The notes beneath the pieces were generated by a model. That model was not told where the DNA came from, made no database searches, and saw nothing but the letters and a program-made list of their open reading frames with translations. DNA of 19,903 bases from Abditibacteriaceae bacterium (lineage in GTDB: Bacteria; Armatimonadota; Abditibacteriia; Abditibacteriales; Abditibacteriaceae), in NCBI GenBank assembly GCA_031372065.1, contig JANMKN010000223.1, forward strand, positions 1 through 19,903, given 5' to 3'. Numbering within the stretch: position 1 is the stretch's first letter; the number at the start of each line of letters is the position of its first letter. Positions 1,913-18,840 of this stretch are shown here, in pieces. Position numbers and translations under genes: made by a program.

Positions 1913-4900
1913 ATGAACGTTTTTGCACTACGGGATCACGTCATCGAGGATTATTCCAATTATATTCGTTCGTTCGTTGATATTCGTCATCCAAAGATTC
2001 AACAATTAGTGGTGCGTGAGTTAAATGAGGGGTTATTATGGCCGGAACCTCTGCTACAACTGAATCCGGCGTTCGAGCCGGGGCGCTCCATAGACCAATT
2101 GTGCGAGCAAAATCTGCTGCATCCTCTTTGTTCTTCGATCTTTCGCCGTAAAAACGAAGGCATAACCCAACCTCTCAATCTCCACAATCACCAAGATCAA
2201 GCTATCGAAGTCGCGCGCACCGGCGCACCCTATGTGCTGACCACAGGCACCGGTTCAGGCAAGTCACTCGCTTATATCATTCCTATCGTAGATTCCATTT
2301 TGCGGCGTGGCGCCGGACAAGGGGTGCAGGCTATTATCGTCTATCCTATGAACGCGCTGGCGAATTCACAAATGGGCGAACTCGAAAAATTTCTGTGCGA
2401 AGGCTTTCCTGAACGGCGTGGCCCAGTGACATTTGCGCGCTATACAGGTCAAGACAACCAACAGCGCCGTGAAGAAATCATTAACAATCCGCCAGATATT
2501 ATTCTGACCAACTTTGTGATGCTGGAACTAATGCTGACGCGCAAACGCGAAAGCGATTTATTGCGCGCCATGTCGGGTGTGCAAGGGAGTGGCTTACGCT
2601 GGTTGGTGCTGGATGAATTGCACACTTATCGTGGCCGGCAAGGTTCTGATGTCGCGGTGTTGGTGCGCCGTGCGCGCGAAATGACCTCTGGCACCGCTTT
2701 GCAGTGCGTCGGCACTTCAGCCACCATTGCAGGCAAAGGCACGCGCCGCGAGCAGCAAACTCAGGTGGCCGAAGTCGCCTCGCAACTCTTTGGCGTTCCT
2801 GTGGCCCCCGAACACATCATCGGTGAAACCTTGCGGCGCTTCACCTCTCCTCGCGATTTCACGCGCGACGAAGAAATAGTTGCCTTACGCGAAAGGCTAA
2901 TTGGCGCTGCTGCTACCGACTGTCAAGTTGACCTGCCCTCTGATCTTCTGGCGGCTTGGATTGAGACGACCTTCGGATTGCAACAATGCGAAGAAGATGG
3001 GGAACGGTTTTTCAGGCGTGCCCAACCGCGCGCTATTGGTGGTGCCAAAGGCGCTGCTCAGGAATTAGCGCAACTCACGGAATTACCCCTTAAATTATGT
3101 GAGCAACGCATTCGGGATTTCCTACTCGCTGCCTATCAATCCCCACCAGATCCGGCTACGGGGCGCACGCCGTTTGCCTTTCGCTTACATCAATGGGTTT
3201 CGCGCGGCGACACGGTTTACGCTTCGCTCGAAGCGCCATTAGAAGATCGTTATTTTACCGTTACCGGCCAAATGATGGTGCCGGGGGCGGGGCGTCAAAA
3301 GGCACTTTTCCCACTGGCGTTTTGCCGCGAATGCGGCCACGAGTTTTATACGGTGTGGCGCAGCAAAGAATCCGGCCTGTCGCACTTTTTGCCGCGCGCA
3401 CTACTGGACACACAAGAAGCCGCTGCGCCAGTGCCGAATGCGGACGCCGGATTTCTTTATGTCTCCGAATCGGCCCCGTGGCCTACCGACAGAGATCAGG
3501 TATCCCGCCGTCTGCCTGATGACTGGCTCGAAGAACATAATGCCTTGCAGCGGGTGAAGCCGGGGCAGCGCGATAACGTGCCGCAACCAATATTGGTTGA
3601 TCCAATGGGGCGCAATGACGCCACAGGCGTGCAATGCTTTTGGATGGCATCCTCGCTGCGCTTTTGCCCTTGCTGCGGCGTCACTTACAATTCCAGCCAA
3701 AAATCCGATTTCTCCAAGTTGTCCTCATTGGGCAACGAAGGCCGCTCGACAGCAACCACGATTCTGTCACTTTCGTTGATTGCCGCACTGCGTCAGGATG
3801 GACAACTCGACGCCGAAGCACGAAAGCTGCTGTCTTTCACCGATAATCGCCAAGATGCTTCATTGCAGGCAGGTCATTTTAACGACTTCATCGAAACAGC
3901 CTTGCTACGCGCTGCGTTATACCGCGCGGTCTGCGAGGCTGGTGCGGACGGCCTGCGACACGACACTTTGGCCGCCGAAGTATTTCGCACCTTGAATTTG
4001 CCGTTTGTAGAATATGCGCGTGATCCAAATGTGCGCTTTGCGGCGCGGGCCGAAGCCGAGCGTGCCTTGCGGGATTTGATTGGCTATCGCCTCTTTCGTG
4101 ATTTGCGGCGCGGTTGGCGTGTGACCAGTCCCAACCTTGAACAATGTGGCTTGCTCGAAATTGATTACGTTTCGCTTGATGAGTTGGCTGAGGCGCAGGA
4201 TGTGTGGGTGAATTTGCATCCTGCTTTGGCCGACGCTGCGCCCGAAAAGAGGCACTATCTGTCGCGCGTGCTTTGTGATGTCTTGCGCCGTGAGTTGGCT
4301 ATCCACGATAGCCATCTGGAAGGGCATTATCAGGAAGCTATGCAGAACCGCGCTGTCCAGCATCTCAAAGCGCCGCCGTCATTGTGGAACTTCGATGAGG
4401 GCGAGCAATTGGAAAAGGCGCGCGTTCTGTTTCCACGCGGACGGGCCAAAGGTTCCAGCGATTCCATCCTTGACGCTTATCTTTCGTCACGCGGCGCTTT
4501 TGGCCGCTTTGTTAAACGTGAATTGTTTGCCGGTGCCAATGCAACCGTTGAAGATGTGCAGCAAGTGCTTTGTGATTTGCTGGCGGCATTGCAAGAGGCC
4601 GGCATTGTCGAACAGGCCCATTCTTATTTGCGCCGCGCCTCACGCAATCGCTTTGGCCGCGATTCAGAACCGGAAGAACCGGGCTATCGCTTGAAAGCCT
4701 CGGCGATTATTTGGCGTTTTGGCGATGGCACGAAACCCCTGCACGATCCGCTACGCACACCGCGCTTGGCCTTTCAAGATGCCGAAGCCTGTGGACGTGT
4801 TAATCCTTTCTTCGCCGCGTTTTATCAAGGCATGGCGCAACTCTTGGGCAGCATGGAAGCGCGCGAACATACGGCGCAGGTGCCTTATGCGCAACGGCAA

Positions 4901-7255
4901 GAGCGCGAGGACAATTTCAAAGACGGCACCTTGCCGGTAATGTATTGCTCGCCGACAATGGAACTGGGCGTGGATATTCGCCAACTCAATGCGGTGCATT
5001 TGCGTAACGTGCCGCCGACACCGGCTAACTATGCCCAGCGTTCGGGCCGCGCCGGACGTAGTGGGCAACCCGCCATTGTATGGACGTATTGCACCAGCAG
5101 CAGCCCACACGATCAATATTTTTTCAAACGTCCTGAGCAGATGGTCGCCGGTGCTGTTTCGCCGCCACGCCTTGACCTTTCCAATGAAGAATTAGTGCGC
5201 GCTCATATTCACGCTTTGTGGCTGCATGAGACCGGCGCGGACTTGAAGCAATCCATGCGTGATGTGCTTGACCTAACGGGCGAAAATCCGACTTTGGAAG
5301 TGCAAGGCCCTCTGCGGGAAGCCTTCACCAGTAGCACCGCCAGAGAAAGAGCAAGGCCACGCGTTAAGCGAGTTATGGATTCACTGGGCGAAGCCGTAAG
5401 CGCCGCGCCGTGGTATTCGCCGCAGTGGTTGGACATGACACTCAGTGGTGCGCCGCACGCCTTTGAATGTGCCTGTGAACGCTGGCGTGGATTGTATCGC
5501 TCGGCGGCCCACCAGCGGGACGCGCAGCACCGTTTAGCCAATGATTTGTCGCGCGCTCCCCAAGACCGCGATCAGGCCCGTCGTCTGCGCGATGAGGCCG
5601 AGCGTCAAATCAGGTTACTCACCGATGTCGGTGAATCAGAGCATTCGGATTTTTATAGCTATCGCTACTTCGCCGCCGAAGGTTTTTTACCGGGCTACAA
5701 TTTTCCGCGCTTGCCACTCTCTGCTTTTATTCCGGGGCGTGGACGGCGCGATCAAGGCGAATATCTTTCGCGTCCGCGCTTCTTGGCGATTTCCGAATTT
5801 GGGCCACGCGCGCTCATCTACCACGAAGGTTCGCGCTATGTTATCAATCAAGTGATTTTGCCTCCGGCTACCGGCCCCGAAGGGGAATCGGTTTTGCCGA
5901 CGGAAACTTTTAAACGCTGCGCCGAATGTGGTTTTGGGCATCCAGTCAACAACGAATCCAACAGCGACTTGTGCGAGCAGTGCGGTGCGCTGTTGCCTGT
6001 GGCATGGGGTAATTTGCTTAGGCTGCAAAACGTGGCGACACGAAGGCGCGACAGGATCAACTGCGACGAAGAGGAAAGGCTTAAACTCGGCTATGAAATC
6101 CTGACTTCCATTCGCTGGCCTGAACGTGAAGGTCGCCGTGCTGTGCATGAAGCCATCGCCGAAACAAAAGGCACCGAAGTAAAAGGCGAAGTGGAACCAT
6201 TAGCGAGACTTTCTTACGCGCAGGCGGCTGCGATATGGCGCATCAATTTGGGCTGGAAACGGCGGCGCGAAGAGCATGGCCCCGGCTTTATGTTGGATAT
6301 AGAGCGCGGCTACTGGGAGAAGGCCGAAAAGGAAGAGCCAGATGACCCGTTTTCCAATCGTAAGGCTTTGGTGATTCCCTTTGTCGAGGATGCCAAAAAC
6401 TGTCTGCTGTTTGAGCCTCACCATGCGGAACAAAGCGACTCCTTCATGGCAAGTTTGGCTCATGCCTTAAAACGTGGCCTTTTAGCACGCTATGGATTGG
6501 AAGATGGCGAACTAACCGTCGAACCGCTGCCGGATGCGCGGCACCGTCGCGTGCTTTTGTTTTATGAGGCTACCGAAGGAGGTGCCGGTGCCTTGAAGCA
6601 TTTGTCTGAAACACCAAACGCACTGGCCGAAGTAGCGCGCCACTCATTAGAAATTTGTCACTTCGATGCGGAAAACGGTGACGATTTGGGCATTCCCACC
6701 GAGACAAACGAAGGCTGTGAAATCGCCTGTTACCATTGCTTACTTTCCTACACCAACCAACCGGAACATTTGCTGTTAGATCGCTTTGCGGTGCGCGATT
6801 ATTTGTTGGCACTAACGCAAACCACGGTTCGGGAAGTGCGCCCCGAATCGCCGGTTGTGGCCGATTTGAATGGTGTGGCTGAATTGGAAAAGGGCGAGTT
6901 GGTAGAAACACTAAAAGTGCCCGCTCCACTGTGGCGCGGCTGCGAATCGGAATTAGAGCGCGATTGGTTGCGCGCTCTCGTCAAGCGCGGTCATCGCTGG
7001 CCCGATGAAGCCCAACGATTGTTTAATGGTGCCGGTGTGCAGGCTGATTTTTATTATGGGCGTGGCTGCGCGATTTTTGTGGATGGCCCGCACCATGATA
7101 GTGAGAATCAAACAATTCACGATGCCACGCGCCGCGCGGCGTTAGAGGACTTGGGCGTGAGCGTTATCGCGTTTCGCTACGATGCCGATTGGGACGCGAT
7201 TTTCGATAAGTGGCCCAGTGTATTTGGCACGGCAAAAACAGTGGTTGCGAAATAG
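1913..7255 (+). CDS. YprA/DrmAB-like SF2 DEAD/DEAH helicase with DUF1998 Zn domain and C-terminal DUF559/Vsr-like nuclease domain
   Basis: Helicase motifs HQDQA, TGTGSGKS, YPMNALANSQ, LVLDELH, TSAT, FTDNRQDA, TMELGVDI and YAQRSGRAGR. Several CxxC pairs. DUF1998-like GGAG...CEIACYHCLLSYTNQ. C-terminal ESELE...ADFYY...IFVDGPHH...LEDLGVSVIAFRYD. Confidence 0.9.
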   Translation: MNVFALRDHVIEDYSNYIRSFVDIRHPKIQQLVVRELNEGLLWPEPLLQLNPAFEPGRSIDQLCEQNLLHPLCSSIFRRKNEGITQPLNLHNHQDQAIEVARTGAPYVLTTGTGSGKSLAYIIPIVDSILRRGAGQGVQAIIVYPMNALANSQMGELEKFLCEGFPERRGPVTFARYTGQDNQQRREEIINNPPDIILTNFVMLELMLTRKRESDLLRAMSGVQGSGLRWLVLDELHTYRGRQGSDVAVLVRRAREMTSGTALQCVGTSATIAGKGTRREQQTQVAEVASQLFGVPVAPEHIIGETLRRFTSPRDFTRDEEIVALRERLIGAAATDCQVDLPSDLLAAWIETTFGLQQCEEDGERFFRRAQPRAIGGAKGAAQELAQLTELPLKLCEQRIRDFLLAAYQSPPDPATGRTPFAFRLHQWVSRGDTVYASLEAPLEDRYFTVTGQMMVPGAGRQKALFPLAFCRECGHEFYTVWRSKESGLSHFLPRALLDTQEAAAPVPNADAGFLYVSESAPWPTDRDQVSRRLPDDWLEEHNALQRVKPGQRDNVPQPILVDPMGRNDATGVQCFWMASSLRFCPCCGVTYNSSQKSDFSKLSSLGNEGRSTATTILSLSLIAALRQDGQLDAEARKLLSFTDNRQDASLQAGHFNDFIETALLRAALYRAVCEAGADGLRHDTLAAEVFRTLNLPFVEYARDPNVRFAARAEAERALRDLIGYRLFRDLRRGWRVTSPNLEQCGLLEIDYVSLDELAEAQDVWVNLHPALADAAPEKRHYLSRVLCDVLRRELAIHDSHLEGHYQEAMQNRAVQHLKAPPSLWNFDEGEQLEKARVLFPRGRAKGSSDSILDAYLSSRGAFGRFVKRELFAGANATVEDVQQVLCDLLAALQEAGIVEQAHSYLRRASRNRFGRDSEPEEPGYRLKASAIIWRFGDGTKPLHDPLRTPRLAFQDAEACGRVNPFFAAFYQGMAQLLGSMEAREHTAQVPYAQRQEREDNFKDGTLPVMYCSPTMELGVDIRQLNAVHLRNVPPTPANYAQRSGRAGRSGQPAIVWTYCTSSSPHDQYFFKRPEQMVAGAVSPPRLDLSNEELVRAHIHALWLHETGADLKQSMRDVLDLTGENPTLEVQGPLREAFTSSTARERARPRVKRVMDSLGEAVSAAPWYSPQWLDMTLSGAPHAFECACERWRGLYRSAAHQRDAQHRLANDLSRAPQDRDQARRLRDEAERQIRLLTDVGESEHSDFYSYRYFAAEGFLPGYNFPRLPLSAFIPGRGRRDQGEYLSRPRFLAISEFGPRALIYHEGSRYVINQVILPPATGPEGESVLPTETFKRCAECGFGHPVNNESNSDLCEQCGALLPVAWGNLLRLQNVATRRRDRINCDEEERLKLGYEILTSIRWPEREGRRAVHEAIAETKGTEVKGEVEPLARLSYAQAAAIWRINLGWKRRREEHGPGFMLDIERGYWEKAEKEEPDDPFSNRKALVIPFVEDAKNCLLFEPHHAEQSDSFMASLAHALKRGLLARYGLEDGELTVEPLPDARHRRVLLFYEATEGGAGALKHLSETPNALAEVARHSLEICHFDAENGDDLGIPTETNEGCEIACYHCLLSYTNQPEHLLLDRFAVRDYLLALTQTTVREVRPESPVVADLNGVAELEKGELVETLKVPAPLWRGCESELERDWLRALVKRGHRWPDEAQRLFNGAGVQADFYYGRGCAIFVDGPHHDSENQTIHDATRRAALEDLGVSVIAFRYDADWDAIFDKWPSVFGTAKTVVAK

Positions 7256-7300: not shown

Positions 7301-10180
7301 ATGATGACAAATTTTTCTCCCGGCTCATTGGTAAAAGCGCGAGGCCGCGAATGGGTAGTTTTGCCGGGTTCGGATGCTGATATGATGTTGCTGCAACCTT
7401 TGGGTGGCGGCAGTGATGATGTTACCGGCATTTATAAACCCGGCGAACTCGAACCTGTTATATCGGCCACGTTTGAGTTGCCGGATGCAGCGCAAACCGG
7501 TGATGCGCGTTCGTCGCGTTTGTTGCGCGAAGCAGTGCGCCTCGGCTTTCGTTCCGGCGCGGGGCCGTTTCGTTCATTCGGGCGCATCGCTGTCGAACCG
7601 CGTCCTTATCAATTAGTGCCGCTACTGTTGGCCTTGCAACTTGACCCGGTGCGCCTCTTAATTGCCGACGATGTTGGCATTGGGAAAACCGTCGAAGCGG
7701 GTTTGATTGCGCGTGAAATGTTAGATCGAGGCGAGATTTCACGAATGTCGGTTCTGTGTCCGCCTCATTTGGCGCATCAATGGGTAGAAGAATTGCGCAG
7801 GCGTTTTCATATTGAAGCGGTGCCGGTTCTTTCCTCTACCGCGCGTCAACTGGAAACCAACTCACACCGCCGCGCCAGCGAATCCATTTTTGAATTTTAT
7901 CCGTTCACGGTGGTTTCGCTGGATTACATCAAAACCCCCGAACATAGCGAAACGTTTTTAGCCCACTGTCCCGAACTGGTGATCGTAGATGAAGCGCATA
8001 CCTGTGCATGGGTAGGTAGCGGGGTGCGGCAACAGCGGCATAAATTGTTGACGCGCTTGGCACAGTCGGCGACGCGCCACATTGTTCTGGTTTCAGCGAC
8101 ACCGCACTCTGGCGATGCGGACGCGTTTCGCTCACTTCTCTCCCTGTTGAGTCCCGATTTCGCCCAATACCCCGATGATCTTTCTGGGCCACATCATGCT
8201 GATAAACGCCGCGAATTAGCGCGCCATCTGGTGCAACGACGCCGTGCCGACATCGAGCATTATTTGAACTCGGACACGCCCTTCCCCAAGCGCGAGCCAG
8301 ACGATGAAAGTGCTTACATTTCTTACACGCTTTCACCGGAATACAAAAAGGTTTTCGAGCGCGTATTAGCCTATGCCAAAGAAACGGTGCGCGATAAATC
8401 AGGCAGCAAGTTCCACCAACGGGTGCGCTGGTGGGCGGCTTTGGGTTTATTGCGGGCGCTGGCTTCCAGCCCCGAAGCGGCGGCGGCTACGCTACTCGCG
8501 CGGGCGCGCAATATGAGTGCGATGACGGTTGAAGAAGCTGACCAAGTCGGGCGACGTGGTGTTTTCGATCTCGTTGAAGATGATGCCGCCGAAGCTGCCG
8601 ATTTAGCACCCGGCGCGCAAGTGAGTGAAGACGACGAAGGCAACAACGAAAACATTCGACGTCTGAAAGATATGGCGAAGGCAGCGCAAAAACTGGCTGG
8701 TGCCGATGATTTGAAATTGCAAGAAGCCACTAAACAGGTGCGCGCACTTTTGAACAGTGGTTTTTCGCCGATATTATTTTGTCGCTTCATCAATACAGCG
8801 GCTTATGTGGCCGAACATCTGAAAACTAAACTCAAAGGTGTCGAAGTGGTAGCCGTCACTGGCCTTATGAGTCCCGATGACCGCAAAGCTGCCGTGGAAG
8901 AATTAGCGGAGGCCACACAAGAAGGCACACGCCGCGTGTTAGTGGCAACGGATTGCCTTTCCGAAGGCATCAACTTGCAAGGCTATTTCGATGCCGTTTT
9001 GCATTATGACCTGCCGTGGAATCCGACGCGACTTGAACAGCGCGAAGGACGCGTAGATCGCTTTGGTCAACCATCCAAAGTGGTGCGGGCACTCACCCTT
9101 TACGGCAAAGACAACCAAATTGATGGCATCGTGTTGGATGTGCTGCTGCGTAAGCATCGCCAGATTCGCAAGGCGTTGGGCGTATCAGTGCCCGTTCCGG
9201 CCAGTTCCGATGCGGTTGTGGAAGCAATTTTCGATGGCCTCTTATTGCGCGGAAAAAATGTATCCACCGAGCAACTCAGCTTGTTCGAGGATTTGATAGA
9301 AAAGCGCGACATTTTTCAGAATCAGTGGGACGTAGTGGCCGAACGAGAGAAACGCTCACGCACAGTTTACGCGCACGAAAGTATCAAGCCGGAAGTCGTC
9401 AAGCAAGAAGTGGATGCGATGCGGCACGCATTAGGTGGTGCTACCGAAGTCGAGAGTTTCGTGCGCGATGCCCTGCAAACAGTCGGCACACCACTGCCGC
9501 TTTCTACGCCAGCCAGACTTGCGCTGGATGCCTTGCCCGAAGTTGTGCAGGAACCGTTGCGAACTGCCTTACCCACCAGCGATTGGAAAGCAGGTGCGTT
9601 GCGTGTGCGCTTTGATACAGCCAACGCCAAAGGCGAAACGCATTTGGGGCGAACGCATCCGCTGGTGGCAACTTTGGCTTCGCACATTTTAGAAACGGCG
9701 CTTGATTCCGTTAATGAAAAACCTTTGGCCGCGCGAAGTGGTGCGATGCGCACCAAAGATGTGACCCGTCGCACCACGCTGCTTTTAACCCGTATGCGCT
9801 TTCATATTCATCAACGGGTGAAGGGTCAAGAGCAGCGTTCGCTTTTGGCCGAGGATTGCGTCTTGATGGCTTTTCGCGGTGCGCCCGAAAACGCCGAGTG
9901 GCTCAGTGAAGAAGAAGCCGAAGCCTTGCTGCAAGCCACGCCCGCTGAAAACATTGCACCCGATCAGGCAGCGGGTTTTGTGAGTGGCATTGTGGATAAC
10001 TTCGAGGCCCTACGCGAGCCACTAAAAGAAGCGGCCCAAAAGCGCGCTCAGGAATTATTGGAAGCACACCGCCGGGTGCGCGATGCGACGCGTGCCGGTG
10101 GCAGTGTGAGTGTGGAAGCGCAACCTGAACCGGACGTGTTGGGTTTGTGGGTTTATCTGCCAGTCTTGATTGAAGCATAG
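7301..10180 (+). CDS. SNF2-family helicase (DrmD-like)
   Basis: LLIADDVGIGKT, IVDEAH, SATPH, ATDCLSEGINLQ and YDLPWNPTRLEQREGRVDRFGQ. The start could be ATG 7301 or 7304. Confidence 0.9.
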   Translation: MMTNFSPGSLVKARGREWVVLPGSDADMMLLQPLGGGSDDVTGIYKPGELEPVISATFELPDAAQTGDARSSRLLREAVRLGFRSGAGPFRSFGRIAVEPRPYQLVPLLLALQLDPVRLLIADDVGIGKTVEAGLIAREMLDRGEISRMSVLCPPHLAHQWVEELRRRFHIEAVPVLSSTARQLETNSHRRASESIFEFYPFTVVSLDYIKTPEHSETFLAHCPELVIVDEAHTCAWVGSGVRQQRHKLLTRLAQSATRHIVLVSATPHSGDADAFRSLLSLLSPDFAQYPDDLSGPHHADKRRELARHLVQRRRADIEHYLNSDTPFPKREPDDESAYISYTLSPEYKKVFERVLAYAKETVRDKSGSKFHQRVRWWAALGLLRALASSPEAAAATLLARARNMSAMTVEEADQVGRRGVFDLVEDDAAEAADLAPGAQVSEDDEGNNENIRRLKDMAKAAQKLAGADDLKLQEATKQVRALLNSGFSPILFCRFINTAAYVAEHLKTKLKGVEVVAVTGLMSPDDRKAAVEELAEATQEGTRRVLVATDCLSEGINLQGYFDAVLHYDLPWNPTRLEQREGRVDRFGQPSKVVRALTLYGKDNQIDGIVLDVLLRKHRQIRKALGVSVPVPASSDAVVEAIFDGLLLRGKNVSTEQLSLFEDLIEKRDIFQNQWDVVAEREKRSRTVYAHESIKPEVVKQEVDAMRHALGGATEVESFVRDALQTVGTPLPLSTPARLALDALPEVVQEPLRTALPTSDWKAGALRVRFDTANAKGETHLGRTHPLVATLASHILETALDSVNEKPLAARSGAMRTKDVTRRTTLLLTRMRFHIHQRVKGQEQRSLLAEDCVLMAFRGAPENAEWLSEEEAEALLQATPAENIAPDQAAGFVSGIVDNFEALREPLKEAAQKRAQELLEAHRRVRDATRAGGSVSVEAQPEPDVLGLWVYLPVLIEA

Positions 10181-10461
10181 TTTGAGGGCAATTCGTCACC
10201 GGCTTGTGGCGGATTGTTACCAGCTTTATCGAGAACTTCCAGAAAACGCTCGCCCGAACCCCGTGCGGCGCGCTGACGCAAAGCGTCTAAGCCAGCTTCG
10301 TGGCCCTGACGGCGTGCCTCAGAATCTTGCCAACGCAGGACAGCTAATTTCTCCGCAACGGCTAAAAGGGCGAGTTGATTCATGGAAACACCTTGCTCTT
10401 GGGCAAGGGATTTTAGCTCCTCGTGCAGGGACGGGGGCAATCTGAGATTTAAAACGCTCAT
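10153..10461 (-). CDS. Ribbon-helix-helix (HicB-like/CopG) antitoxin
   Basis: N-terminal LNLRLPPSLHEELKSLAQEQGVSMNQL is an RHH pattern. Its start overlaps the PIN gene stop (ATGA, 10458-10461). Confidence 0.82.
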   Translation of the reverse strand: MSVLNLRLPPSLHEELKSLAQEQGVSMNQLALLAVAEKLAVLRWQDSEARRQGHEAGLDALRQRAARGSGERFLEVLDKAGNNPPQAGDELPSNYASIKTGR

Positions 10462-10907
10462 GTGGGATTATCCTCCTGATTTTGCAAAGTCGTGAGACGG
10501 GCTAAAAATTGCGCCGGAGTGACAATCTCCGGCAAAAAACCCGCGCCGCCGCCGAAATCGCGAGTATTGAATGTAATTAGAAAATGGGCACCGGCAGCCA
10601 CAGCACACTCCAAAACCATGTCGTCTTTTGGGTCTTGGAGAACGGGACGCCATTGAAAATGAATTTCCTGCGGACGCATCATGCTAACCAAACCATCCAG
10701 AAAATCGTCCAACTCCTGCACCGTCAAACCAAATCGCTCAACGTTGCGGTGCAGCACGCCGCGATATTCCTCGAACAACAAACCAGAAACGAATGCTGTC
10801 AACTCATTTTGCGCCAGACGAAGCAAAATTTGGCGCGACGCACCAGCTTTCGAGTCCAGTGCCGCAAAGATGACATTCGTGTCTAAAACAACCCGGTAGT
10901 GTTGCAT
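10458..10907 (-). CDS. PIN-domain (VapC-like) toxin
   Basis: VVLDTNVIFAAL, EEY, DPKDDMVLECAV and LITFNTRDF carry the PIN acidic residues. Confidence 0.9.
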   Translation of the reverse strand: MQHYRVVLDTNVIFAALDSKAGASRQILLRLAQNELTAFVSGLLFEEYRGVLHRNVERFGLTVQELDDFLDGLVSMMRPQEIHFQWRPVLQDPKDDMVLECAVAAGAHFLITFNTRDFGGGAGFLPEIVTPAQFLARLTTLQNQEDNPT

Positions 10908-10935: not shown

Positions 10936-13900
10936 ATGAACTCTTCATCTCTCGCTTCTACTGTTCGCCTTGAAGGTGCGCTCTTTTCGCGCGACTTTTT
11001 AGATCGTCTCGGCGCACTTTCGTCGGACTTGCCGCATTTGTCGCCGCAAAGTTATGGACTGGCGCCCGAAGATAAATTGCGAGAGAAAATTAGCGCCAGT
11101 TGGAATGCTCTCAGTGGCCGCTGGGATAGGTTTCAAAGTGAGCTAAAAAAACTTAGCGAAGATGATTACGCCGTAGGCATCACGCGGCGCGAATGGCTGT
11201 TGCCGGTGTTGCAGGAACTCAATTTCGGGCGCGTGCAAACTGCCAATGCCATTCGCCTGACTGTCGGCGACGAAAGCAAAGAATACGCGATTTCGCATGG
11301 CTGGAATCGCACGCCGCTGCATTTGCTGGGCGCACGAGTTTCGCTCGATGTGCGCACGCAAGGCTTACCCGGCGCGGCGCAAATGGCACCGCACGCGCTG
11401 GTGCAAGAATGCCTCAATCGTTCGGGTGAGCATTTGTGGGCAGTGCTTTCTAACGGCTACAAATTTCGCGTGCTGCGCGACTCGGCGGCAATTGCGCGGC
11501 GCAGTTATGTCGAGTTCGATTTAGAGGCGATTTTCGAGAACGAAGATGCTTCCGGCTTTGCGCTGTTTTGGCTGCTTTGCCATGCCTCGCGTTTTGAATG
11601 GCGGGCGGCTGCGAATGAGGAAAACGAAGCCAACCCGCCGATTCTCGAAGATTGGCAAAAGGAAACCGAGCAGGAAGGCGTGCGCGCCCGCGATGTTATG
11701 CGCGGGGGAGTGCAAGGCGCGATTGAACATATCGGCACAGGGTTGCTGCGTCACAAAGATAACAAGCCGTTGCGCGAAGAATTGCGCAGTGGCGCGCTGT
11801 TGCCGCTGGATTTTTACAAGCTGACGTTGCGCCTTGTTTATCGCTTGCTGTTTATTCTCGTCGCCGAAGCCAAAGACAACTTGCTGCTGCCGGTAATCAA
11901 AGCGCCCCTCACCCCTAACCCCTCTCCCCCAAACGCTGCGCTGGGGACAGGGGAAAGTGAAGCCAAGGCGCGGGCCACAGCGCGTGAGCGTTACGAAAAT
12001 TATTATTCGCTGGCGAAGTTGCGCCAGAGGGCGGCCAAAACGCGCGGCACGGCGCACGAAGATGCGTGGCAAGGCTTGTGTCTGACGTTTCAATTTTTGC
12101 GCGGCGGCGAAGAAGGTTTAGCGATTCCGGCGCTCGGCGGTTTTCTGTTTCAGGAAGCAAGGCTCAAAGACGGCAGTGTGGCCTTGGAAGAATGCCATCT
12201 CGCCAATGAAGATTTGTTCGCGGCCTTGCGTCAGTTGTGCTATTTCCAGCAGGGCGCGGCGCGGCGTCAGGTCAATTTCACCAACCTCGGCAGCGAAGAA
12301 TTGGGCAGCGTTTATGAATCGCTGCTCGAACTGACGCCGCGCGTGGATTTGGATGGCTACCGTTTCCAACTCGAAACTTTGGCAGGCAACGAACGCAAGA
12401 TAACAGGCAGCTATTACACGCCGGAAATCCTCGTCAAATCGCTGCTCGATAGCGCGCTTGAACCTGTTATTGAAGCTGCGCTTCGGCGAGCGGCGAGCGG
12501 TGAGCAGCGAATGGAGAATGTATCAGATGGTGAACTCTTATCAGGATTTGGAAGTGTGGGAACGAGGGATGACTCTGGCGGAACAGGCTTATCGGTTGAC
12601 ACGCACCTTTCCGAAGGAAGAATTGTTCGGTCTGACTTCGCAGCTACGGAGATCAGCGAGTTCGATTCCGGCGAACATCGCAGAGGGATGGGGCAGGGAA
12701 AGCACGAAGGAATTCCTGCGATTTCTGAGCATAGCGATGGGCAGTCTGCGCGAAACAGAAACGCATCTGATTCTGGCACAGCGCGTGGGATTGGCGACAG
12801 CCGAACAAATTCAGCCTTTGCAACAGAACACGGAAATCTTGGGGCGTCAGCTTCTGAATCTGCAACGCAGCCTACGGCGCAAACTCGAAAAGGAAACGTA
12901 AATCCACTCGCTACTCGCCATTCGCTACTCGCCGCTCAGGAGAAAGCCCTGCTTTCGCTGCGCATTTGCGATCCGGCGTGCGGCAGCGGGCATTTTCTCA
13001 CAGCGGCGGCGCGGCGGGTGGCTTCGCGTTTGGCGCTACTTCGCACGCAGGGCAACGAACCGGAAAAGGCCGAATACCAACACGCGCTGCGCGAAGTGGT
13101 CGGGCATTGCATTTACGGCATTGACGTGAACGAAATGGCCGTCGAACTGTGCAAAATCGCACTGTGGATGGAAGGACTGGAAGCGGGACGCCCGCTGTCG
13201 TTTCTCGATTCGCATATTCGCTGCGGCAACTCGCTGCTCGGTGCCACGCCCGACATGATTGAAAACGGCTTGCCCGACGAGGCGTTTGCGGCGCTCGAAG
13301 GCGATGACAAAACTGTCGTCAGCGCGCTCAAAAAGCGCAACAAATTGGAGCGCGACACACAAACCACCACCTCGCTGTTCGTCGAAGAAAAATTGCCGCT
13401 CGGCGATTTGCGGCGCGCGATTGCCGAAATTGAGCAAGTCGGCGATGAACAACTCGAAGGCGTGCAACAAAAAGAACGAATGTTGCGCGCTCTGGAACAA
13501 TCCGGCTCCTACGATCACACCCATTTGCTTTACGATGCGTGGTGCGCTGCGTTTGTCTGGAAGAAAGTGCCTGACACGTTGCGCGGAGAAGGCGCTTTAG
13601 CCAAAGGCGAAACCAATCCCAATTTCATTGAGCCGCTGACCACCGAAGGCATTCGTTACATTCAGCAAAGCGCCTTGCCGATGTTTGCGCAGCAACGCCC
13701 TGAAATCAAGCGACTGCGCGGGCAATATAAATGGTTTCATCCGCATCTGGAATTTCCCGCCGTGTTTGGCGACAAAGGCGGGTTTGATGTGATTCTCGGC
13801 AATCCGCCGTGGGAGCGCGTCAAGTTGCAGGAAAAAGAATGGTTCGCGGCGCGCAGTCCCGAAATTGCGGGTGCGCCCAACGCGGCGGCGCGCGGGCGTT

Positions 13901-15354
13901 TGATTGAACAACTCAAAAGCGGCGATCCGGTTTTGCATGGCGCTTTTTTGGACGACAAGCGACGAGCCGAAGGCGAAAGCCATTTTGCGCGTTCCAGTGA
14001 CCGTTTTCCGCTCTGTGGACGCGGCGATGTGAACACTTACGCGCTTTTTGCCGAACTCAACCGCAATTTCATCAACGATTCGGGCCGCGTCGGTTGTATC
14101 GTGCCCTCCGGCATCGCCACCGACGACACCACCAAATTCTTCTTTGGTGACCTTGTTGAGAGGCAGAGCCTTATTAGCCTTTACGACTTTCAAAGTTCAA
14201 AAGGTTTGTTCAGCGAAATCGGTCACGCGCGATTCAAATTCTGCTGTTTAACAATGTGTGGTGCAAACGATAGTCATGGTTCTAACGCGGAATTTGCATT
14301 CTTTCTGCGCAGTGACGCCGAATTGCAAGATGCAGAACGCCGTTTCAAATTGTCGCCTGACGAAATCGCGTTGCTCAACCCGAACACCAAAACCTGCCCG
14401 ATTTTCCGCTCGTCGCGCGACGCCGAATTAACGAAGGCGATTTATCGCCGCGTGCCGGTGCTGGTCAATGAAAGCACCGGCGCCAATCCGTGGGGCATCA
14501 AATTTTCGACGATGTTCCATATGTCGAACGATTCGGGCTTGTTTGAAAACGAGCCGGACGAGGGGCGCCTGCCGCTTTACGAAGCCAAAATGCTGCATCA
14601 TTTCGATCATCGTTGGGCCACTTATGAAAACGGTGACACGCGCGATGTTAGCGACGCCGAAAAAAACGACCCGCAATTCGTGGTGCAGCCGCGCTATTGG
14701 GTCGCCGCACACGAAGTCAAAGCAAAAATGAGCGATAAATGGGACAAAAAGTGGCTGCTTGGCTTCCGCGACATTTGCCGTTCAACTGATGAGCGCACCG
14801 TTATCGCTTCGGTTTTGCCGCGCGTTGGGTGTGGAAATAAAATCCCTCTGATGATTATTGATGAGGACGTGGCCAAAGCTGCTTGTTTAATTGCCAATTT
14901 AACTGCCTTTCCTTACGATTACACATCACGGCAAAAAATAGGTAGCACCACATTAAACTATTTTATTTTCAAACAGCTCCCTGTCCTGCCGCCTTCGACT
15001 TACGACCAAACGCCGTCGTGGACGGGCGACGCCCTTTTGCGAGATTGGATAGCGCGGCGCGTGTTGGAACTGACTTACACCGCTTACGACCTGCGCGACT
15101 GGGCGCACGATTTAGGCTACGACGGCGAGCCGTTCGGCTGGGACACTGCGCGGCGCTTTGCCCTGCGCTGCGAGTTGGACGCGGCGTTTTTCCATCTCTA
15201 CGGCCTCACGCGCGACGAAACCGCCTACGTCCTCGACACCTTCCCCATCGTGCGCCGCAAAGACGAACGCGACTACGGCACCTATCGCACCAAAGACGAA
15301 ATCTTGCGGCTGTTCGATGAAATGGCAGCCTTGTGCATAGTCCCGGTAGCTTAG
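10936..15354 (+). CDS. Large N6-adenine DNA methyltransferase (Eco57I/type IIG-like, DrmMI-like) with two internal insertions
   Basis: ELGSVYESLLE, RKITGSYYTP, motif I CDPACGSGHFL, IYGIDVN and motif IV GNPPW (gamma-class order), followed by a C-terminal target-recognition region. Confidence 0.9.
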   Translation: MNSSSLASTVRLEGALFSRDFLDRLGALSSDLPHLSPQSYGLAPEDKLREKISASWNALSGRWDRFQSELKKLSEDDYAVGITRREWLLPVLQELNFGRVQTANAIRLTVGDESKEYAISHGWNRTPLHLLGARVSLDVRTQGLPGAAQMAPHALVQECLNRSGEHLWAVLSNGYKFRVLRDSAAIARRSYVEFDLEAIFENEDASGFALFWLLCHASRFEWRAAANEENEANPPILEDWQKETEQEGVRARDVMRGGVQGAIEHIGTGLLRHKDNKPLREELRSGALLPLDFYKLTLRLVYRLLFILVAEAKDNLLLPVIKAPLTPNPSPPNAALGTGESEAKARATARERYENYYSLAKLRQRAAKTRGTAHEDAWQGLCLTFQFLRGGEEGLAIPALGGFLFQEARLKDGSVALEECHLANEDLFAALRQLCYFQQGAARRQVNFTNLGSEELGSVYESLLELTPRVDLDGYRFQLETLAGNERKITGSYYTPEILVKSLLDSALEPVIEAALRRAASGEQRMENVSDGELLSGFGSVGTRDDSGGTGLSVDTHLSEGRIVRSDFAATEISEFDSGEHRRGMGQGKHEGIPAISEHSDGQSARNRNASDSGTARGIGDSRTNSAFATEHGNLGASASESATQPTAQTRKGNVNPLATRHSLLAAQEKALLSLRICDPACGSGHFLTAAARRVASRLALLRTQGNEPEKAEYQHALREVVGHCIYGIDVNEMAVELCKIALWMEGLEAGRPLSFLDSHIRCGNSLLGATPDMIENGLPDEAFAALEGDDKTVVSALKKRNKLERDTQTTTSLFVEEKLPLGDLRRAIAEIEQVGDEQLEGVQQKERMLRALEQSGSYDHTHLLYDAWCAAFVWKKVPDTLRGEGALAKGETNPNFIEPLTTEGIRYIQQSALPMFAQQRPEIKRLRGQYKWFHPHLEFPAVFGDKGGFDVILGNPPWERVKLQEKEWFAARSPEIAGAPNAAARGRLIEQLKSGDPVLHGAFLDDKRRAEGESHFARSSDRFPLCGRGDVNTYALFAELNRNFINDSGRVGCIVPSGIATDDTTKFFFGDLVERQSLISLYDFQSSKGLFSEIGHARFKFCCLTMCGANDSHGSNAEFAFFLRSDAELQDAERRFKLSPDEIALLNPNTKTCPIFRSSRDAELTKAIYRRVPVLVNESTGANPWGIKFSTMFHMSNDSGLFENEPDEGRLPLYEAKMLHHFDHRWATYENGDTRDVSDAEKNDPQFVVQPRYWVAAHEVKAKMSDKWDKKWLLGFRDICRSTDERTVIASVLPRVGCGNKIPLMIIDEDVAKAACLIANLTAFPYDYTSRQKIGSTTLNYFIFKQLPVLPPSTYDQTPSWTGDALLRDWIARRVLELTYTAYDLRDWAHDLGYDGEPFGWDTARRFALRCELDAAFFHLYGLTRDETAYVLDTFPIVRRKDERDYGTYRTKDEILRLFDEMAALCIVPVA
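11905..11953 (+). repeat. REP-like palindromic element inserted in-frame in the methyltransferase gene
   Basis: CCCCTCACCCCTAACCCCTCTCCCCCA...TGGGGACAGGGG forms an imperfect hairpin with a C-rich leader and translates as PLTPNPSPPNAALGTG. Confidence 0.65.
12484..12518 (+). repeat. Left 7-nt tandem repeat array of the nested element
   Basis: CGGCGAG CGGCGAG CGGTGAG CAGCGAA TGGAGAA. Confidence 0.8.
12518..12901 (+). CDS. Four-helix-bundle protein (23S rRNA intervening-sequence protein family), nested in the +1 frame of the methyltransferase gene
   Basis: SYQDLEVWERGMTLAEQAYRLTRTFPKEELFGLTSQLRRSASSIPANIAEGWGRESTKEFLRFLSIAMGSLRETETHL is the family signature. The start is probably ATG 12527 (GGAG at 12513-12516) or 12518, not the TTG at 12458. 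Confidence 0.92.
   Translation: MYQMVNSYQDLEVWERGMTLAEQAYRLTRTFPKEELFGLTSQLRRSASSIPANIAEGWGRESTKEFLRFLSIAMGSLRETETHLILAQRVGLATAEQIQPLQQNTEILGRQLLNLQRSLRRKLEKET
12907..12937 (+). repeat. Right 7-nt tandem repeat array, complementary to the left array
   Basis: CTCGCTA CTCGCCA TTCGCTA CTCGCCG CTC. Bases 12928-12937 are the exact reverse complement of 12488-12497, and 12918-12926 of 12506-12514. Confidence 0.8.
15182..15327 (+). repeat. Direct repeat, copy 1 (methyltransferase 3' end)
   Basis: 146 bp matching 16345-16490 with 12 mismatches by manual alignment. Confidence 0.92.
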
Positions 15355-15437
15355 TGCATAGTCTGGGAAACGTTGTGCATAGTCCCGGTAGCGTTATCCA
15401 GAGTCCCAGTAGCGTTATCCAACGTCACCGCAACGCT
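15333..15437 (+). repeat. 21-bp tandem repeat, 5 progressively degenerate units
   Basis: GTGCATAGTCCCGGTAGCTTA / GTGCATAGTCTGGGAAACGTT / GTGCATAGTCCCGGTAGCGTT / ATCCAGAGTCCCAGTAGCGTT / ATCCAACGTCACCGCAACGCT. Confidence 0.8.
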
Positions 15438-15471
15438 ATCCGGCGTTCGTGTGGCAGCAAACCACGAACTT

Positions 15472-15528
15472 GGCACCTATCGCACCAAAGTCGAGATTAC
15501 GCGGATTTACGAGGCGATAGCAGGATAG
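15472..15528 (+). pseudogene. Degenerate extra copy of the methyltransferase C-terminus
   Basis: 19-nt exact match GGCACCTATCGCACCAAAG. Translates as GTYRTKVEITRIYEAIAG*, versus [18 protein letters not shown] in the gene. Confidence 0.7.
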
Positions 15529-15640: not shown

Positions 15641-15958
15641 ATGGTTTTCCTTTAAACTTCCACGTTCACCCGCCGCGTGACCGAACTGCTGCCAGATGAT
15701 GAATACCGCAATCTGCAAGGAAAACTGGTTGATCGCCCCGATTCCGGTGACATCATTCGCGGTAGCGGAGGCATTCGCAAGTTGCGATGGGGACTGCAAG
15801 GGCGGGGTAAACGCGGCGGGGCGCGTTTCATTTATTACTGGGCCAAGGGGCAAGATCAAATCTTGATGCTGTTCGTTTTCACCAAAAATGAAGCGGACGA
15901 TTTGACGCAAGATCAAATTCACCAACTGCGGGCCATTGTGGAAGGAGAATATCCATGA
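15641..15958 (+). pseudogene. higB: RelE/HigB-family toxin with a premature stop at codon 5
   Basis: MVFL*TSTFTRRVTELLPDDEY...GDIIRGSGGIRKLRW...GKRGGARFIYY...FTKNEADDL, with in-frame TAA at 15653-15655. The ORF track starts it at GTG 15677. Confidence 0.8.
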
Positions 15959-16317
15959 AAGACGAATTATTTCAGGAACTATTAGAAAGCGTGCGCGAAG
16001 GCGGCGCTATAATGCGCGGCGAGCAGGAAGCGGCCCGCCGTTTTGAATTGGCATCGCCGGATGTGCGCCGTTTGCGCGAGGAGGCCGGTTTTTCGCAGCG
16101 TGAGTTCGCCACCTTGATGGGCATCAGCCCCGGCACGCTGCGCAACTGGGAGCAAGGCCGCCGCCAACCCGAAGGTGCTGCGCGTGTGTTGCTCGCTGTG
16201 GCTGCAAAACATCCCAAAATCGTTTGGGGCGTAGTGCGCCCTTCGACTGTCCGCACCACCAAACGGCGCCCTGTCGCCTCAGCAAAGCGCCGCCCTATCG
16301 CCAATAGCAAAGCCTAA
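15955..16317 (+). CDS. higA: HigA/NadS-like XRE helix-turn-helix antitoxin
   Basis: MKDELFQELLESVREG...FSQREFATLMGISPGTLRNWEQGRRQPEGAARVLL, with a GGAG Shine-Dalgarno and an ATGA overlap with the toxin stop. Confidence 0.88.
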   Translation: MKDELFQELLESVREGGAIMRGEQEAARRFELASPDVRRLREEAGFSQREFATLMGISPGTLRNWEQGRRQPEGAARVLLAVAAKHPKIVWGVVRPSTVRTTKRRPVASAKRRPIANSKA

Positions 16318-16344
16318 AACAGCTACAAACTCATTAACGACACA

Positions 16345-16508
16345 CGGCGTTTTTCCAACTCTACGGCCTGAGCCGCGACGAAGCCGCTTATGTGATGGCC
16401 ACCTTCCCCATCGTGCGCCGCAAAGACGAACGCGACTACGGCACCTATCGCACCAAAGGCGAAATCTTGCGGCTGTTCGATGAAATGGCAAACGGAGTAT
16501 TAAATTAA
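16345..16508 (+). pseudogene. Direct repeat, copy 2: orphan methyltransferase 3' end
   Basis: Translates as [53 protein letters not shown]. The repeat itself spans 16345-16490. Confidence 0.88.
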
Positions 16509-16523
16509 ACTCTGAGCTTAACC

Positions 16524-17126
16524 ATGCCTAACCAACGCACCTCCAAGCCGATCATCATGGTATCGTCGTCGGTTTACCAAATTGAATCGTTGTTGAATCA
16601 AATTTATGGTGTGCTTGACGGCTGGGGCTACACTGTCTGGATGTCGCATAAAGGCACGGTGCCTGTGCATCCGGGAAAAACCGCTTTTGAAAATTGTCTG
16701 GAAGCAACGCGACAATGTGATTTGTTTTTAGGTTTGATTACGCCATTTTATGGGAGCGGCAGACAAACCGGCGAACCCTCCATTACGCATCGTGAGATGC
16801 TACTTTCCATCGAAATTGATAAGCCCCGCTGGTTTCTGGCACACCATGATGTGGTTTTCGCGCGCCAGATTCTCAAACAATACCGATTCAAAGACAAGAT
16901 GGCAAATGAGTCTTTTACGTTTCGCGCGACCAAAGTCATGGATCATATCGGTGTCGTCGAGATTTATGAAGCAGCGATTCGTGCCGATCTCGACGAATAC
17001 GAACAGCGCACGGGCAATTGGGTGCAGGAATACATAACACCGCAGGACGTGCTTGGATTCATTGAGGCGCAATTTGGCGATAAGAAACGTATCAAGGCAT
17101 TTTTGAAAGAGGCGAAGCAATCATGA
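16524..17126 (+). CDS. DUF4062-like (TIR/NDT-fold) protein
   Basis: IMVSSSVY...GYTVWMS...AFENCLEATRQCDLFLGLITPFYGSG...SITHREM matches the DUF4062 pattern. Confidence 0.78.
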   Translation: MPNQRTSKPIIMVSSSVYQIESLLNQIYGVLDGWGYTVWMSHKGTVPVHPGKTAFENCLEATRQCDLFLGLITPFYGSGRQTGEPSITHREMLLSIEIDKPRWFLAHHDVVFARQILKQYRFKDKMANESFTFRATKVMDHIGVVEIYEAAIRADLDEYEQRTGNWVQEYITPQDVLGFIEAQFGDKKRIKAFLKEAKQS

Positions 17127-18535
17127 GCCGACTGGCCATTCAAGACCTGCTAAAAGCGGGTGAATCACAGGATCGCGAGTTCAAACGCAATGCGGCGAAT
17201 TTGGACGCTATCGGCGCGTCGGTCTGTGCTTTTCTTAATACGGAAGGCGGCACCCTGCTCATTGGAGTGAGCGACGCCGGGCGCATTGAACCTGTGGTAG
17301 ACGCGGATGAGAAAATCGCTGCTATCCAATCTCATGTGCAAGAGCGTTTATCACCAAAGGCTTTGTGGTCAGTCACCAAGGAAGTGACGCCGCAAGGCGA
17401 AATACTAAGCGTAGACGTTCCATCGGGGCAAGACCGCCCTTATCTGTTCAAAGACAGAATTTATCTCCGTCAAGGCCCAAATTCGAGGGTAGCCAAGGCC
17501 GAAGAGATTCGTAAATTGGTGTTGGCACGCGCGGGAGAACCAACCCGTTGGGAACGACTGGCCGCGCCGGGATTGGAATTAACCGACCTTGATGTTATAG
17601 AAATCAAGACCACCTCTGACATGGCTCGCAAAGTTGGAGCATCAAGCGTCCGCCGTCCGCCTGAGAGTGTCACCGGCCCCATCGAATTTGAACAAATGCT
17701 GGCTGAATGGTCGTTGTGGCAATTCGGGGTATTAACGAATGGCGCTGCTGTGCTTTTTGCCAATAATCCTGCGCTACGTCTACCGCAGACTCGAATCCGG
17801 GCCAGTCGTTTCGAGACAGACAAAGGCGGCAATTTCATTGATGACCGGGTTTTTGAGGGACACGCTTTTGATGTGTTGGAGCAAGTTTTTTCCTTTGTTC
17901 GGCAGCACGTTCGCATCGAAGGTCATTTTGAATCCGCTGGTTACCAGCGTGAAGACCGCCCAGAATATCCTTTCGCGGCGTTACGCGAAGGGATCATTAA
18001 CGCCATTATCCATCGTGATTACGAATCTTTCTCCGGCGGGATGGCGATTGGCATTTATCCGCACCGTATCGAGATTTGGAATTATGGCAGGCTACCGGAT
18101 GGCTTAAGAGTGCAAGATTTAAAAAAGAGCCATCCTTCTCTCCCCTCAAATCCCGATATGGCGCACGTCTTTTACTTGCGTGGCTTCATCGAACGATTAG
18201 GGCGTGGAACACAAAAAATCGTGCAAGAGTGCGAAGCGGCGGGCCTTCCTTCGCCTACTTGGAAAGTTTCTGAGTCTGGGATTACCCTGACGTTCTTTGG
18301 CCGCCAGTCTATGGCGACTACCAAGCCCCTCAACAGTCGCCAGAAGGCTTTGCTGCAACGGCTCGAACCGAGTCAGATAATTCATCCTGCGGATTATTAC
18401 AAAGAGATGATTAACCAGATTAGCCAAAGACAAGCTCAACGCGACTTGACTGATCTCGAAAAAAGCGGCTGGCTAAAGAAAGAAGGCGATGGCCCAGCAA
18501 CTGTTTACCTCCGAACTGAGAAAGAAATGGAGTGA
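17123..18535 (+). CDS. AlbA_2 (Schlafen-like) + RecG-C/HATPase_c_4 + C-terminal wHTH protein
   Basis: GESQDREFK, CAFLNTEGGTLLIGVSD, YPFAALREGIINAIIHRDY, IERLGRGT and SQRQAQRDLTDL...GDGPATVY. ATGA overlap with the upstream gene. Confidence 0.88.
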   Translation: MSRLAIQDLLKAGESQDREFKRNAANLDAIGASVCAFLNTEGGTLLIGVSDAGRIEPVVDADEKIAAIQSHVQERLSPKALWSVTKEVTPQGEILSVDVPSGQDRPYLFKDRIYLRQGPNSRVAKAEEIRKLVLARAGEPTRWERLAAPGLELTDLDVIEIKTTSDMARKVGASSVRRPPESVTGPIEFEQMLAEWSLWQFGVLTNGAAVLFANNPALRLPQTRIRASRFETDKGGNFIDDRVFEGHAFDVLEQVFSFVRQHVRIEGHFESAGYQREDRPEYPFAALREGIINAIIHRDYESFSGGMAIGIYPHRIEIWNYGRLPDGLRVQDLKKSHPSLPSNPDMAHVFYLRGFIERLGRGTQKIVQECEAAGLPSPTWKVSESGITLTFFGRQSMATTKPLNSRQKALLQRLEPSQIIHPADYYKEMINQISQRQAQRDLTDLEKSGWLKKEGDGPATVYLRTEKEME

Positions 18536-18565
18536 TGTTTAGGACGCAAGTGTAGGAAACCAATA

Positions 18566-18711
18566 TACCCAGACATATCCAGACATGAATTTGTCTGGCG
18601 GGGCGGGGGGGGCCTCAAAAAATCGGGGTTTGCCTGCAATTTGTTCGACAAAACCAAGTATTTAATGCTCTTACAAGATGAAAAGAGCGAGAATCCAGAC
18701 AAATCCAGACA
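18566..18711. repeat. Cluster of CCAGACA motifs in the intergenic region
   Basis: TACCCAGACA TATCCAGACA (18566-18585), inverted TGTCTGG (18592-18598), and AATCCAGACA AATCCAGACA (18692-18711). Confidence 0.7.
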
Positions 18712-18840
18712 TTTGCCATGCCTTAAAAATACAGACTACAAGAGGAACCGATGTGAGTGGATGCTACCGAACATGGACGCCAATCTTTGAATGGATTGCT
18801 CTGATGTCACAAAAGTTATTTGGAAAGCGAAGGTAAACCA

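Follow-up and report, generated by a model that had tools for sequence, protein, structure and literature searches.

An out-of-frame four-helix-bundle cassette in a bacterial DNA methyltransferase gene whose own reading frame stays open

The window analysed here, a DNA stretch of 19,903 nucleotides which forms an entire 19.9-kb contig of a 6.1-Mb genome (94% complete), carries a DNA methyltransferase gene with a second gene nested within it, on the same strand and in another frame. The reading that we consider very probable is dual coding by read-through, in which the host gene is translated straight across a selfish, nuclease-free cassette lodged in a permissive loop before motif I. As judged from sequence, both frames appear to be translated, the enzyme is probably active, and the cassette would be a selfish passenger. 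In bacteria, conserved gene pairs in which one long gene lies wholly inside another on the same strand are regarded as rare. A literature search, with most subscription journals outside it, found no description of four-helix-bundle genes nested in coding genes.

A repeat-flanked cassette lies within the methyltransferase gene

The host gene (10936..15354, + strand) was recognised as an ORF, by Pfam and by PADLOC as encoding a 1472-aa N6-adenine DNA methyltransferase of the Eco57I/type IIG/DrmMI-like kind. Pfam matches on its product are Eco57I (above cut-off), MmeI_Mtase and N6_Mtase, while PADLOC ranks DrmMI first (194.6 bits) and REase_MTase_IIG next. The motif GSYYTP (aa 491; 12406..12423, +), invariant or nearly so in the alignments, is located 5' of the cassette, and DPACGSG (aa 679; 12970..12990, +; placed by alignment), which we take to be SAM-binding motif I, is located 3' of it. 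NPPW (aa 956; 13801..13812, +), presumably the catalytic motif, is intact in the sequence. With DPACGSG and NPP(Y/F/W) intact and Eco57I above cut-off, the protein was assigned to the type IIG/DrmMI-like N6-adenine methyltransferases.

The gene stands in a defence-locus context, downstream of a DEAD/DEAH helicase gene (DruE-like; 1913..7255, +; Pfam, PADLOC) and an SNF2-type helicase gene (DpdE/DrmD-like; 7301..10180, +; Pfam, NCBIfam, PADLOC). In a comparison with the class I DISARM gene set, DrmMI is the top PADLOC match of the methyltransferase, DrmD scores 336.7 against an NCBIfam cut-off of 610, and the two helicases score best in PADLOC as DpdE and DruE; DrmB and DrmC are absent among the ORFs scanned, on a contig that stops at both window ends. 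A terminase large subunit-like gene (245-1789, +) is found immediately 5' of this locus, and Pfam detects a PIN-domain and HicB/RHH-like pair (10153-10907, −) between the SNF2 helicase and the methyltransferase. Further defence-island cargo, namely DUF4062, Schlafen/AlbA_2-RecG-C and REase-ARP genes, lies downstream (16524-19644, +).

The cassette, i.e. the nested gene with its two arms, spans 12484..12937 (+; host-frame aa 517-667/668) according to inverted repeats, spacer length and alignment, and its ends are not base-exact. As the spacer between YYT and DPACG is 183 aa long in the window enzyme vs 34-36 aa in the shortest empty alleles, the net insert amounts to about 147-151 codons. Repeats, fold and structural model define the left arm (12484..12517, +) as an array with a 7-nt period and the right arm (12903..12937, +) as a complementary array of the same period. 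The arms pair in both the minimum-energy and the centroid fold (z −2.25; 1/100 shuffles). A check for arm covariation was set aside: in 39 of the 41 site-1 loci the two arms of a locus pair better with each other than the average over 15 swapped partners, yet they beat every swap in only 9/41, because the arms share a consensus.

The nested gene (12527..12901, +) encodes a 124-aa four-helix-bundle / 23S rRNA intervening sequence protein, identified by Pfam, NCBIfam and a PDB match. It lies in the +1 frame relative to the host and ends with TAA at 12899-12901. Its product covers the whole PF05635 profile (E 3.5e-39, 133.7 bits vs a cut-off of 33.8), reaches 132.5 bits vs a cut-off of 24 for TIGR02436, is also above cut-off for NF008911, and matches PDB 2gsc at E 1.8e-27. 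A likely ribosome-binding site, GGAG (12513..12516, +), is present 10 nt 5' of the ATG at 12527, with a duplex of −6.4 kcal/mol with the anti-SD motif. This ATG is the most likely start, since the alternative one at 12518 is too close to GGAG. Among the 41 site-1 loci with enough flank, a start codon is present in 40 and a ribosome site of −5 kcal/mol or better in 30, both counts being without a chance control.

The cassette encodes neither a nuclease nor a transposase. The analysis identified no mobility enzyme for it, no target-site duplication is evident by eye, and blast found no close second copy in the same genome. A free four-helix-bundle copy in that genome (L005; G000:C161:31886-32170) has an internal TGA and is likely decaying. 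What the original prediction overlooked is that cassettes of this kind, flanked by repeats, recur, and that they share an insertion hotspot across the family.

Taken alone, the open frame of the window copy is only suggestive

It had been predicted that both frames are open, and this is the case: the host frame is stop-free across 12491-12934 and the second + frame holds an intact ORF. The accompanying claim, that no T-ending codon of the nested gene precedes AAx, AGx or GAx, is also correct: of the 30 nested codons that start with AA, AG or GA, none (0) follows a T. Two figures needed revision. Dual coding had been assigned to 148 codons, whereas the actual overlap is about 125 (~124-127) codons and the 147-151 codons are the entire insert including arms. 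The probability of such an open frame by chance had been put below 1%, which is too low. Shuffling of the nested gene's own synonymous codons, a check proposed together with this estimate, gave P 0.032, and a null model with genome codon usage gave 0.032 as well; only uniform codons gave a value below 1% (0.005). Real 127-codon segments of this genome gave 0.026 (209/7976). With ~3 stops expected and P ~0.03, the window copy alone is thus only suggestive.

A rival reading is that the open frame is a chance survivor of a recent insertion, possibly in an inactive enzyme. The P value of the window copy is in line with this, as are the position of the window enzyme as sister to two empty alleles (SH-aLRT 92) and the fact that one of 25 free copies is open by chance. 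Still, we find chance survival highly improbable in view of the family pattern at near-saturated wobble sites described below, the intact host motifs, and the window copy itself, which shares the direction of the family's shifts in host-frame residues (Cys 0 vs 2.3, Tyr 0 vs 3.3 and Gly 14 vs 9.0 expected).

The host frame is open in relatives flanked by methyltransferase sequence

We assembled the best 80 of 453 relatives of the nested protein in GTDB genomes, picked by likeness to the nested query. The host-equivalent frame is open in 54 of these 80 loci vs 4.3 expected from local codon usage, and the other + frame in 1/80. A first grouping into open and closed copies was circular for stops, and the loci were regrouped by methyltransferase homology on both flanks. 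All genome loci flanked by such homology at both ends have an open host frame over the core (40/40), and in 39/40 the whole gap is in frame and stop-free, counts that are not independent, since the nested copies are related. A metagenome set of 81 loci (80 metagenome, 1 viral), which may share organisms with the genome set, gave 47/47 open cores and 44/47 whole gaps in frame and stop-free for both-sided loci, and 8/8 open for loci with a methyltransferase on one side. Lacking a methyltransferase context, 23 of 26 metagenome loci are closed, and two of the three open ones are DUF1156-type nested copies as judged by their flanks. The single relative on viral contigs is closed. Among the open nested copies are some from genomes of 36-39% GC, for which 5-10 stops were expected. 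Broken hosts occur in 5 of the 87 both-sided loci, four within the gap (L032, L139, L153, L154) and one without NPP (L046).

As a control we drew copies by family, not by likeness to the window copy, from 41 genomes of the phylum. This yielded 30 loci, or 28 after leaving out the window's own locus and one fragment: 24 closed, 3 nested in methyltransferases and 1 free copy open. The concern raised at the outset, that free-standing homologues might commonly have this frame open, is thus dispelled by 24 closed copies among the 25 non-nested ones. Four other copies in the window's genome are intergenic and all closed (4/4), with 5-9 stops each. The family-level tests make the open frame far more than chance.

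Wobble bases of the nested gene follow the residues of the host frame

T at wobble positions before AA/AG/GA is missing from open copies (0/1172 vs 162 expected), a zero that is fixed by the open/closed grouping itself; not so fixed is the count of T at all other wobbles of the open copies, which is 714 vs 705 expected. Closed copies have 105 T before AA/AG/GA vs 110 expected. Four-fold sites differ at a median of 0.65 between nested copies (990 pairs) and 0.75 in free copies, and the wobble sites of nested copies are hence near saturation. Where an invariant Gly is followed by AG, T occurs in 0/45 nested vs 12/28 free copies. Such sequence patterns indicate that the open frame is maintained, not merely inherited.

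We then asked which host-frame residues are favored once the stop-making options are removed, for 45 site-1 nested copies vs 27 free copies. Nested copies are depleted (observed/expected) in Cys (14/79), Tyr (44/101), Trp (18/37), Pro (314/499) and Arg (380/561) and enriched in Gly (668/457), Asp (323/206) and Ser (555/349), with Val, Ala and Glu at 1.0-1.1 of expectation. Cys is low in 43/45 nested loci, and Gly plus Asp are high in 45/45; the kinship of the nested copies inflates all of these figures. No such shift is seen in the 27 free copies (Cys 81/74, Gly 241/255, Asp 103/106), in which Ser is raised and Pro lowered too. Because the wobble shift follows the encoded host-frame residue, its direction, off Cys/Tyr/Trp and toward Gly/Asp, points to selection on a translated loop.

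A different possibility is that splicing takes the cassette out of the transcript, or that ribosomes hop over its stem, with the open frame as a back-up. On one hand, the long terminal stem of the predicted fold places the two ends next to each other, and the insert lengths stay divisible by 3. On the other hand, RNA-level removal would need neither stop avoidance nor the host-frame Cys/Gly/Asp shifts, Rfam gives no intron or ribozyme match, remnant alleles retain arm-like peptides with changed residues, and the known IVS RNA is cut without re-joining (PMC4990558). It is for these reasons that we see removal or skipping as highly improbable and prefer read-through.

Both genes look alive and the insert is modelled as a low-confidence loop

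Among full-insert enzymes that are not truncated (93 rows, of which 11 are too short), all but one of 82 have NPP(W/Y/F) (81/82), as do 29/29 empty ones. The bundle ORF is intact in 39/44 loci, with 2 premature stops, 2 lost stops and 1 cut accounting for the rest. On their sequences, both genes look alive. That the methyltransferase is read through the insert, as the original prediction had it, is consistent with the host-frame amino-acid shifts, the intact motifs on both sides and the predicted model, and the enzyme may well still be functional.

AlphaFold was run on aa 431-803 with 35 insert-bearing rows (mean pLDDT 63). Structure prediction had been proposed as a check on whether the insert is a disordered surface loop; in this model aa 528-654 have pLDDT <50, a value that is no proof of disorder, between two helices. 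These helices (aa 497-521 and 657-673) are predicted with confidence and include the arms: the left arm would prolong a helix in the host frame, and the right-arm residues from aa 657 form a predicted helix running into the SAM-binding motif. A fold search with the model returned nothing at E ≤0.001, its weak top rows being the PglX and CamA adenine methyltransferases. ESM Atlas assigned the host-frame insert to the nested gene's own family at 0.77, which we rejected as a known wrong-frame effect.

One metatranscriptome contains two contigs, each at depth 2, that come from a near relative (covering 12328-12588 and 12584-12883) and cross the left junction without a skip. We do not count them as support, because their strand is unshown, DNA is not excluded and the right junction is unbridged. 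Six differences are listed in the nested ORF of this relative, four silent and two changing for the bundle; the same six all change host residues and create no stop, and at depth 2 they may be errors.

The cassette is patchily distributed and enters other hosts

Same-loop nesting recurs in many phyla, with patchy presence on a quick methyltransferase tree of 149 cores (93 full, 29 empty, 20 short with mostly repeat-like spacers, 7 intermediate). The full insert requires 18 changes on this tree, at least 8 of them forced by starred branches, in a sample biased by the insert-bearing query and on trees that cannot separate gain from loss. In a tree of the bundle proteins (83 rows, 122 columns, with an unsettled bootstrap), nesting at site 1 has to change 7 times, at least 4 of them forced. 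The nested bundles do not form a single clade, and a starred clade rich in them also contains 7 free copies with 3-11 stops each. Enzyme and bundle distances are weakly correlated (rho 0.24, p 0.005, n=33), and the pattern is therefore partly one of co-inheritance and partly one of reshuffling. Five intermediate alleles retain arm-like peptides with changed residues while the bundle region is gone; we read these as probable remnants.

Further nesting sites are a C-terminal site in a related enzyme and a distant methyltransferase. Other hosts are DUF1156 methylases (4 loci, 2 sites), a type ISP enzyme, a kinase/STAND protein and the housekeeping gene for Mfd, the transcription-repair coupling factor (L083:4130-7873), where the frame is open as well. 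Host-frame translations of the cassette were also noticed in the ATPase domain region of a hybrid histidine kinase (P0012, from protein only) and in kinase/STAND proteins (L066:2487-5360).

These data bear on the idea that the cassette has been domesticated as a control element of the defence operon: its stem would be cut by RNase III or slow translation, and the bundle bound to it would adjust how much methyltransferase is made. This could coexist with read-through. It is favored by the pairing of the arms in the predicted fold, by the good conservation of the bundle frame in nested copies, and by 5/28 non-nested copies (L045, L055, L072, L076, L079) that adjoin the 5' side of the same enzyme family, next to cassette-free enzymes; the related Coxiella IVS, with heptamer repeats, is cut by RNase III (PMC4990558). 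However, empty alleles are common and include the sisters of the window enzyme, and most free copies sit amid housekeeping genes. As nesting also occurs in Mfd and a kinase, the cassette is not defence-specific. Domestication is in our opinion rather unlikely, though it deserves some weight, and the selfish cassette is the reading pursued below.

Comparison with known nested and intervening elements

The closest precedent for the arrangement comes from actinophage methylases, in which out-of-frame HNH endonucleases, the ShiLan domain and the Pacc40 gp60 insertion, lie in an open host frame (PMC11855218). As there, a DNA methylase whose own frame is open carries a second, out-of-frame gene, splicing elements are lacking and occurrence is patchy. 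PMC11855218 also describes the in-frame product as a predicted poorly ordered loop, as here, and Pacc40 relatives with the HNH gene just 5' of the methylase, to which our five loci with the cassette 5' of a cassette-free enzyme are comparable. Unlike in ShiLan, the passenger is a four-helix bundle without a known nuclease and with a ribosome-binding site and inverted 7-nt arms, the hosts are bacterial defence-type genes in many phyla instead of mycobacteriophage methylases, and host-frame selection was measured. A hidden homing endonuclease of the ShiLan type was rejected: the nesting is out of frame, but only four-helix-bundle families match, not HNH.

For its protein, the cassette resembles the ORF-bearing 23S intervening sequences (S23p; Coxiella, Leptospira), with a PF05635/TIGR02436 protein, sense orientation and sporadic occurrence; terminal inverted repeats forming a stem, here a predicted one, and heptamer repeats are likewise shared. 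For the Coxiella 23S IVS, the same protein family, the heptamer repeats and RNase III cutting without re-joining are documented (PMC4990558). The cassette differs in its location: inside a protein-coding gene, a cut that is not re-joined would destroy the message, and tolerance comes through an open second frame. A 23S rRNA location was rejected, the cassette being within the methyltransferase ORF and 11800-13100 having no rRNA match in Rfam.

PF05635 has been linked to Avd of diversity-generating retroelements, which has a homologous fold (PMC10053308), and XCC0516, a member of a homologous four-helix-bundle family, is a pentamer (PMC4990558). The window protein, which matches PDB 2gsc, is like Avd in belonging to homologous four-helix-bundle families. 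Avd binds RNA. A diversity-generating retroelement was rejected, as the PF00078 reverse transcriptase is absent from the genome (94% complete) and from the 12 window ORFs scanned; a repeat search showed no template/variable repeat near the nested gene.

Inteins, and palindromic elements found within coding regions, such as the Rickettsia palindromic elements, are inserted near conserved motifs, are patchy among alleles and are kept in the reading frame. The cassette shares these three traits, and differs in having no splicing domain and in carrying a whole second gene in another frame. An intein was rejected, with no splicing (Hint) domain or intein family on the host protein in Pfam and NCBIfam, and so was a self-splicing intron, with no group I/II structure and only one chance-level miRNA match in Rfam at E ≤1. 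Ultimately, the cassette acts in the manner of a ShiLan-type passenger and is made from an IVS cassette, but it is a member of neither group.

A possible life cycle of the cassette

In the scenario that we propose, the cassette enters the permissive loop just before motif I. Straight reading of the mRNA would give the enzyme with a predicted disordered, Gly/Ser/Asp-rich loop, while the internal ribosome-binding site would give the 124-aa bundle protein from the same mRNA. As the cassette lacks a nuclease or transposase, its most likely means of spreading are the 7-nt arrays and exchange between alleles of related methyltransferases, by recombination or gene conversion. The bundle protein likely binds the arm stem, protecting or mobilising it. 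This binding and the spreading route are the weakest steps. Long dual coding may be followed by decay of the bundle frame, and then by an arms-only remnant or loss.

A broader version can be put forward tentatively, as a conjecture that is less likely than not to be right. Four-helix-bundle cassettes might be widespread nuclease-free selfish elements that colonise protein-coding genes via dual coding, with selection rewriting their wobbles so that the host frame yields a harmless Gly/Ser/Asp loop; a bundle pentamer might spread or protect its own RNA stem of 7-nt repeats, and arms left after decay might become new host helices.

Nesting of this kind would add a third mode of existence for passenger genes inside host genes to the two that rely on RNA splicing and protein splicing, and repeat DNA may turn into protein structure in this way. 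With ~90 loci and matched free-standing controls, selection on an overprinted frame becomes measurable directly. The long-unexplained S23p/four-helix-bundle protein gains a testable setting: a stem in the mRNA, a start site inside the host gene, and a host enzyme whose empty alleles allow comparison. As annotation pipelines call only one frame, such loci are read as a long or split methyltransferase.

Other repeats in the methyltransferase genes

The window methyltransferase contains a second, unrelated palindrome in frame (11905-11958, +), in a stretch that the alignment shows to be ~31 aa longer than in five homologues. Blast gives 47 short matches for this palindrome in the genome, and sediment runs show a spike in depth. 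A 92% DNA copy of the final ~49 codons of the methyltransferase (16344-16490, +) follows a RelE/HTH toxin-antitoxin pair (15677-16317), and short repeats of its 3' end are found at 15373-15490; the arrangement gives the impression that sequence was inserted or exchanged where the gene ends. Finally, several related methyltransferases (P0002-P0005, P0011, L021) have extra short in-frame hairpin inserts at other loops, without a nested gene, which consist of 7-nt arrays and other palindromes.
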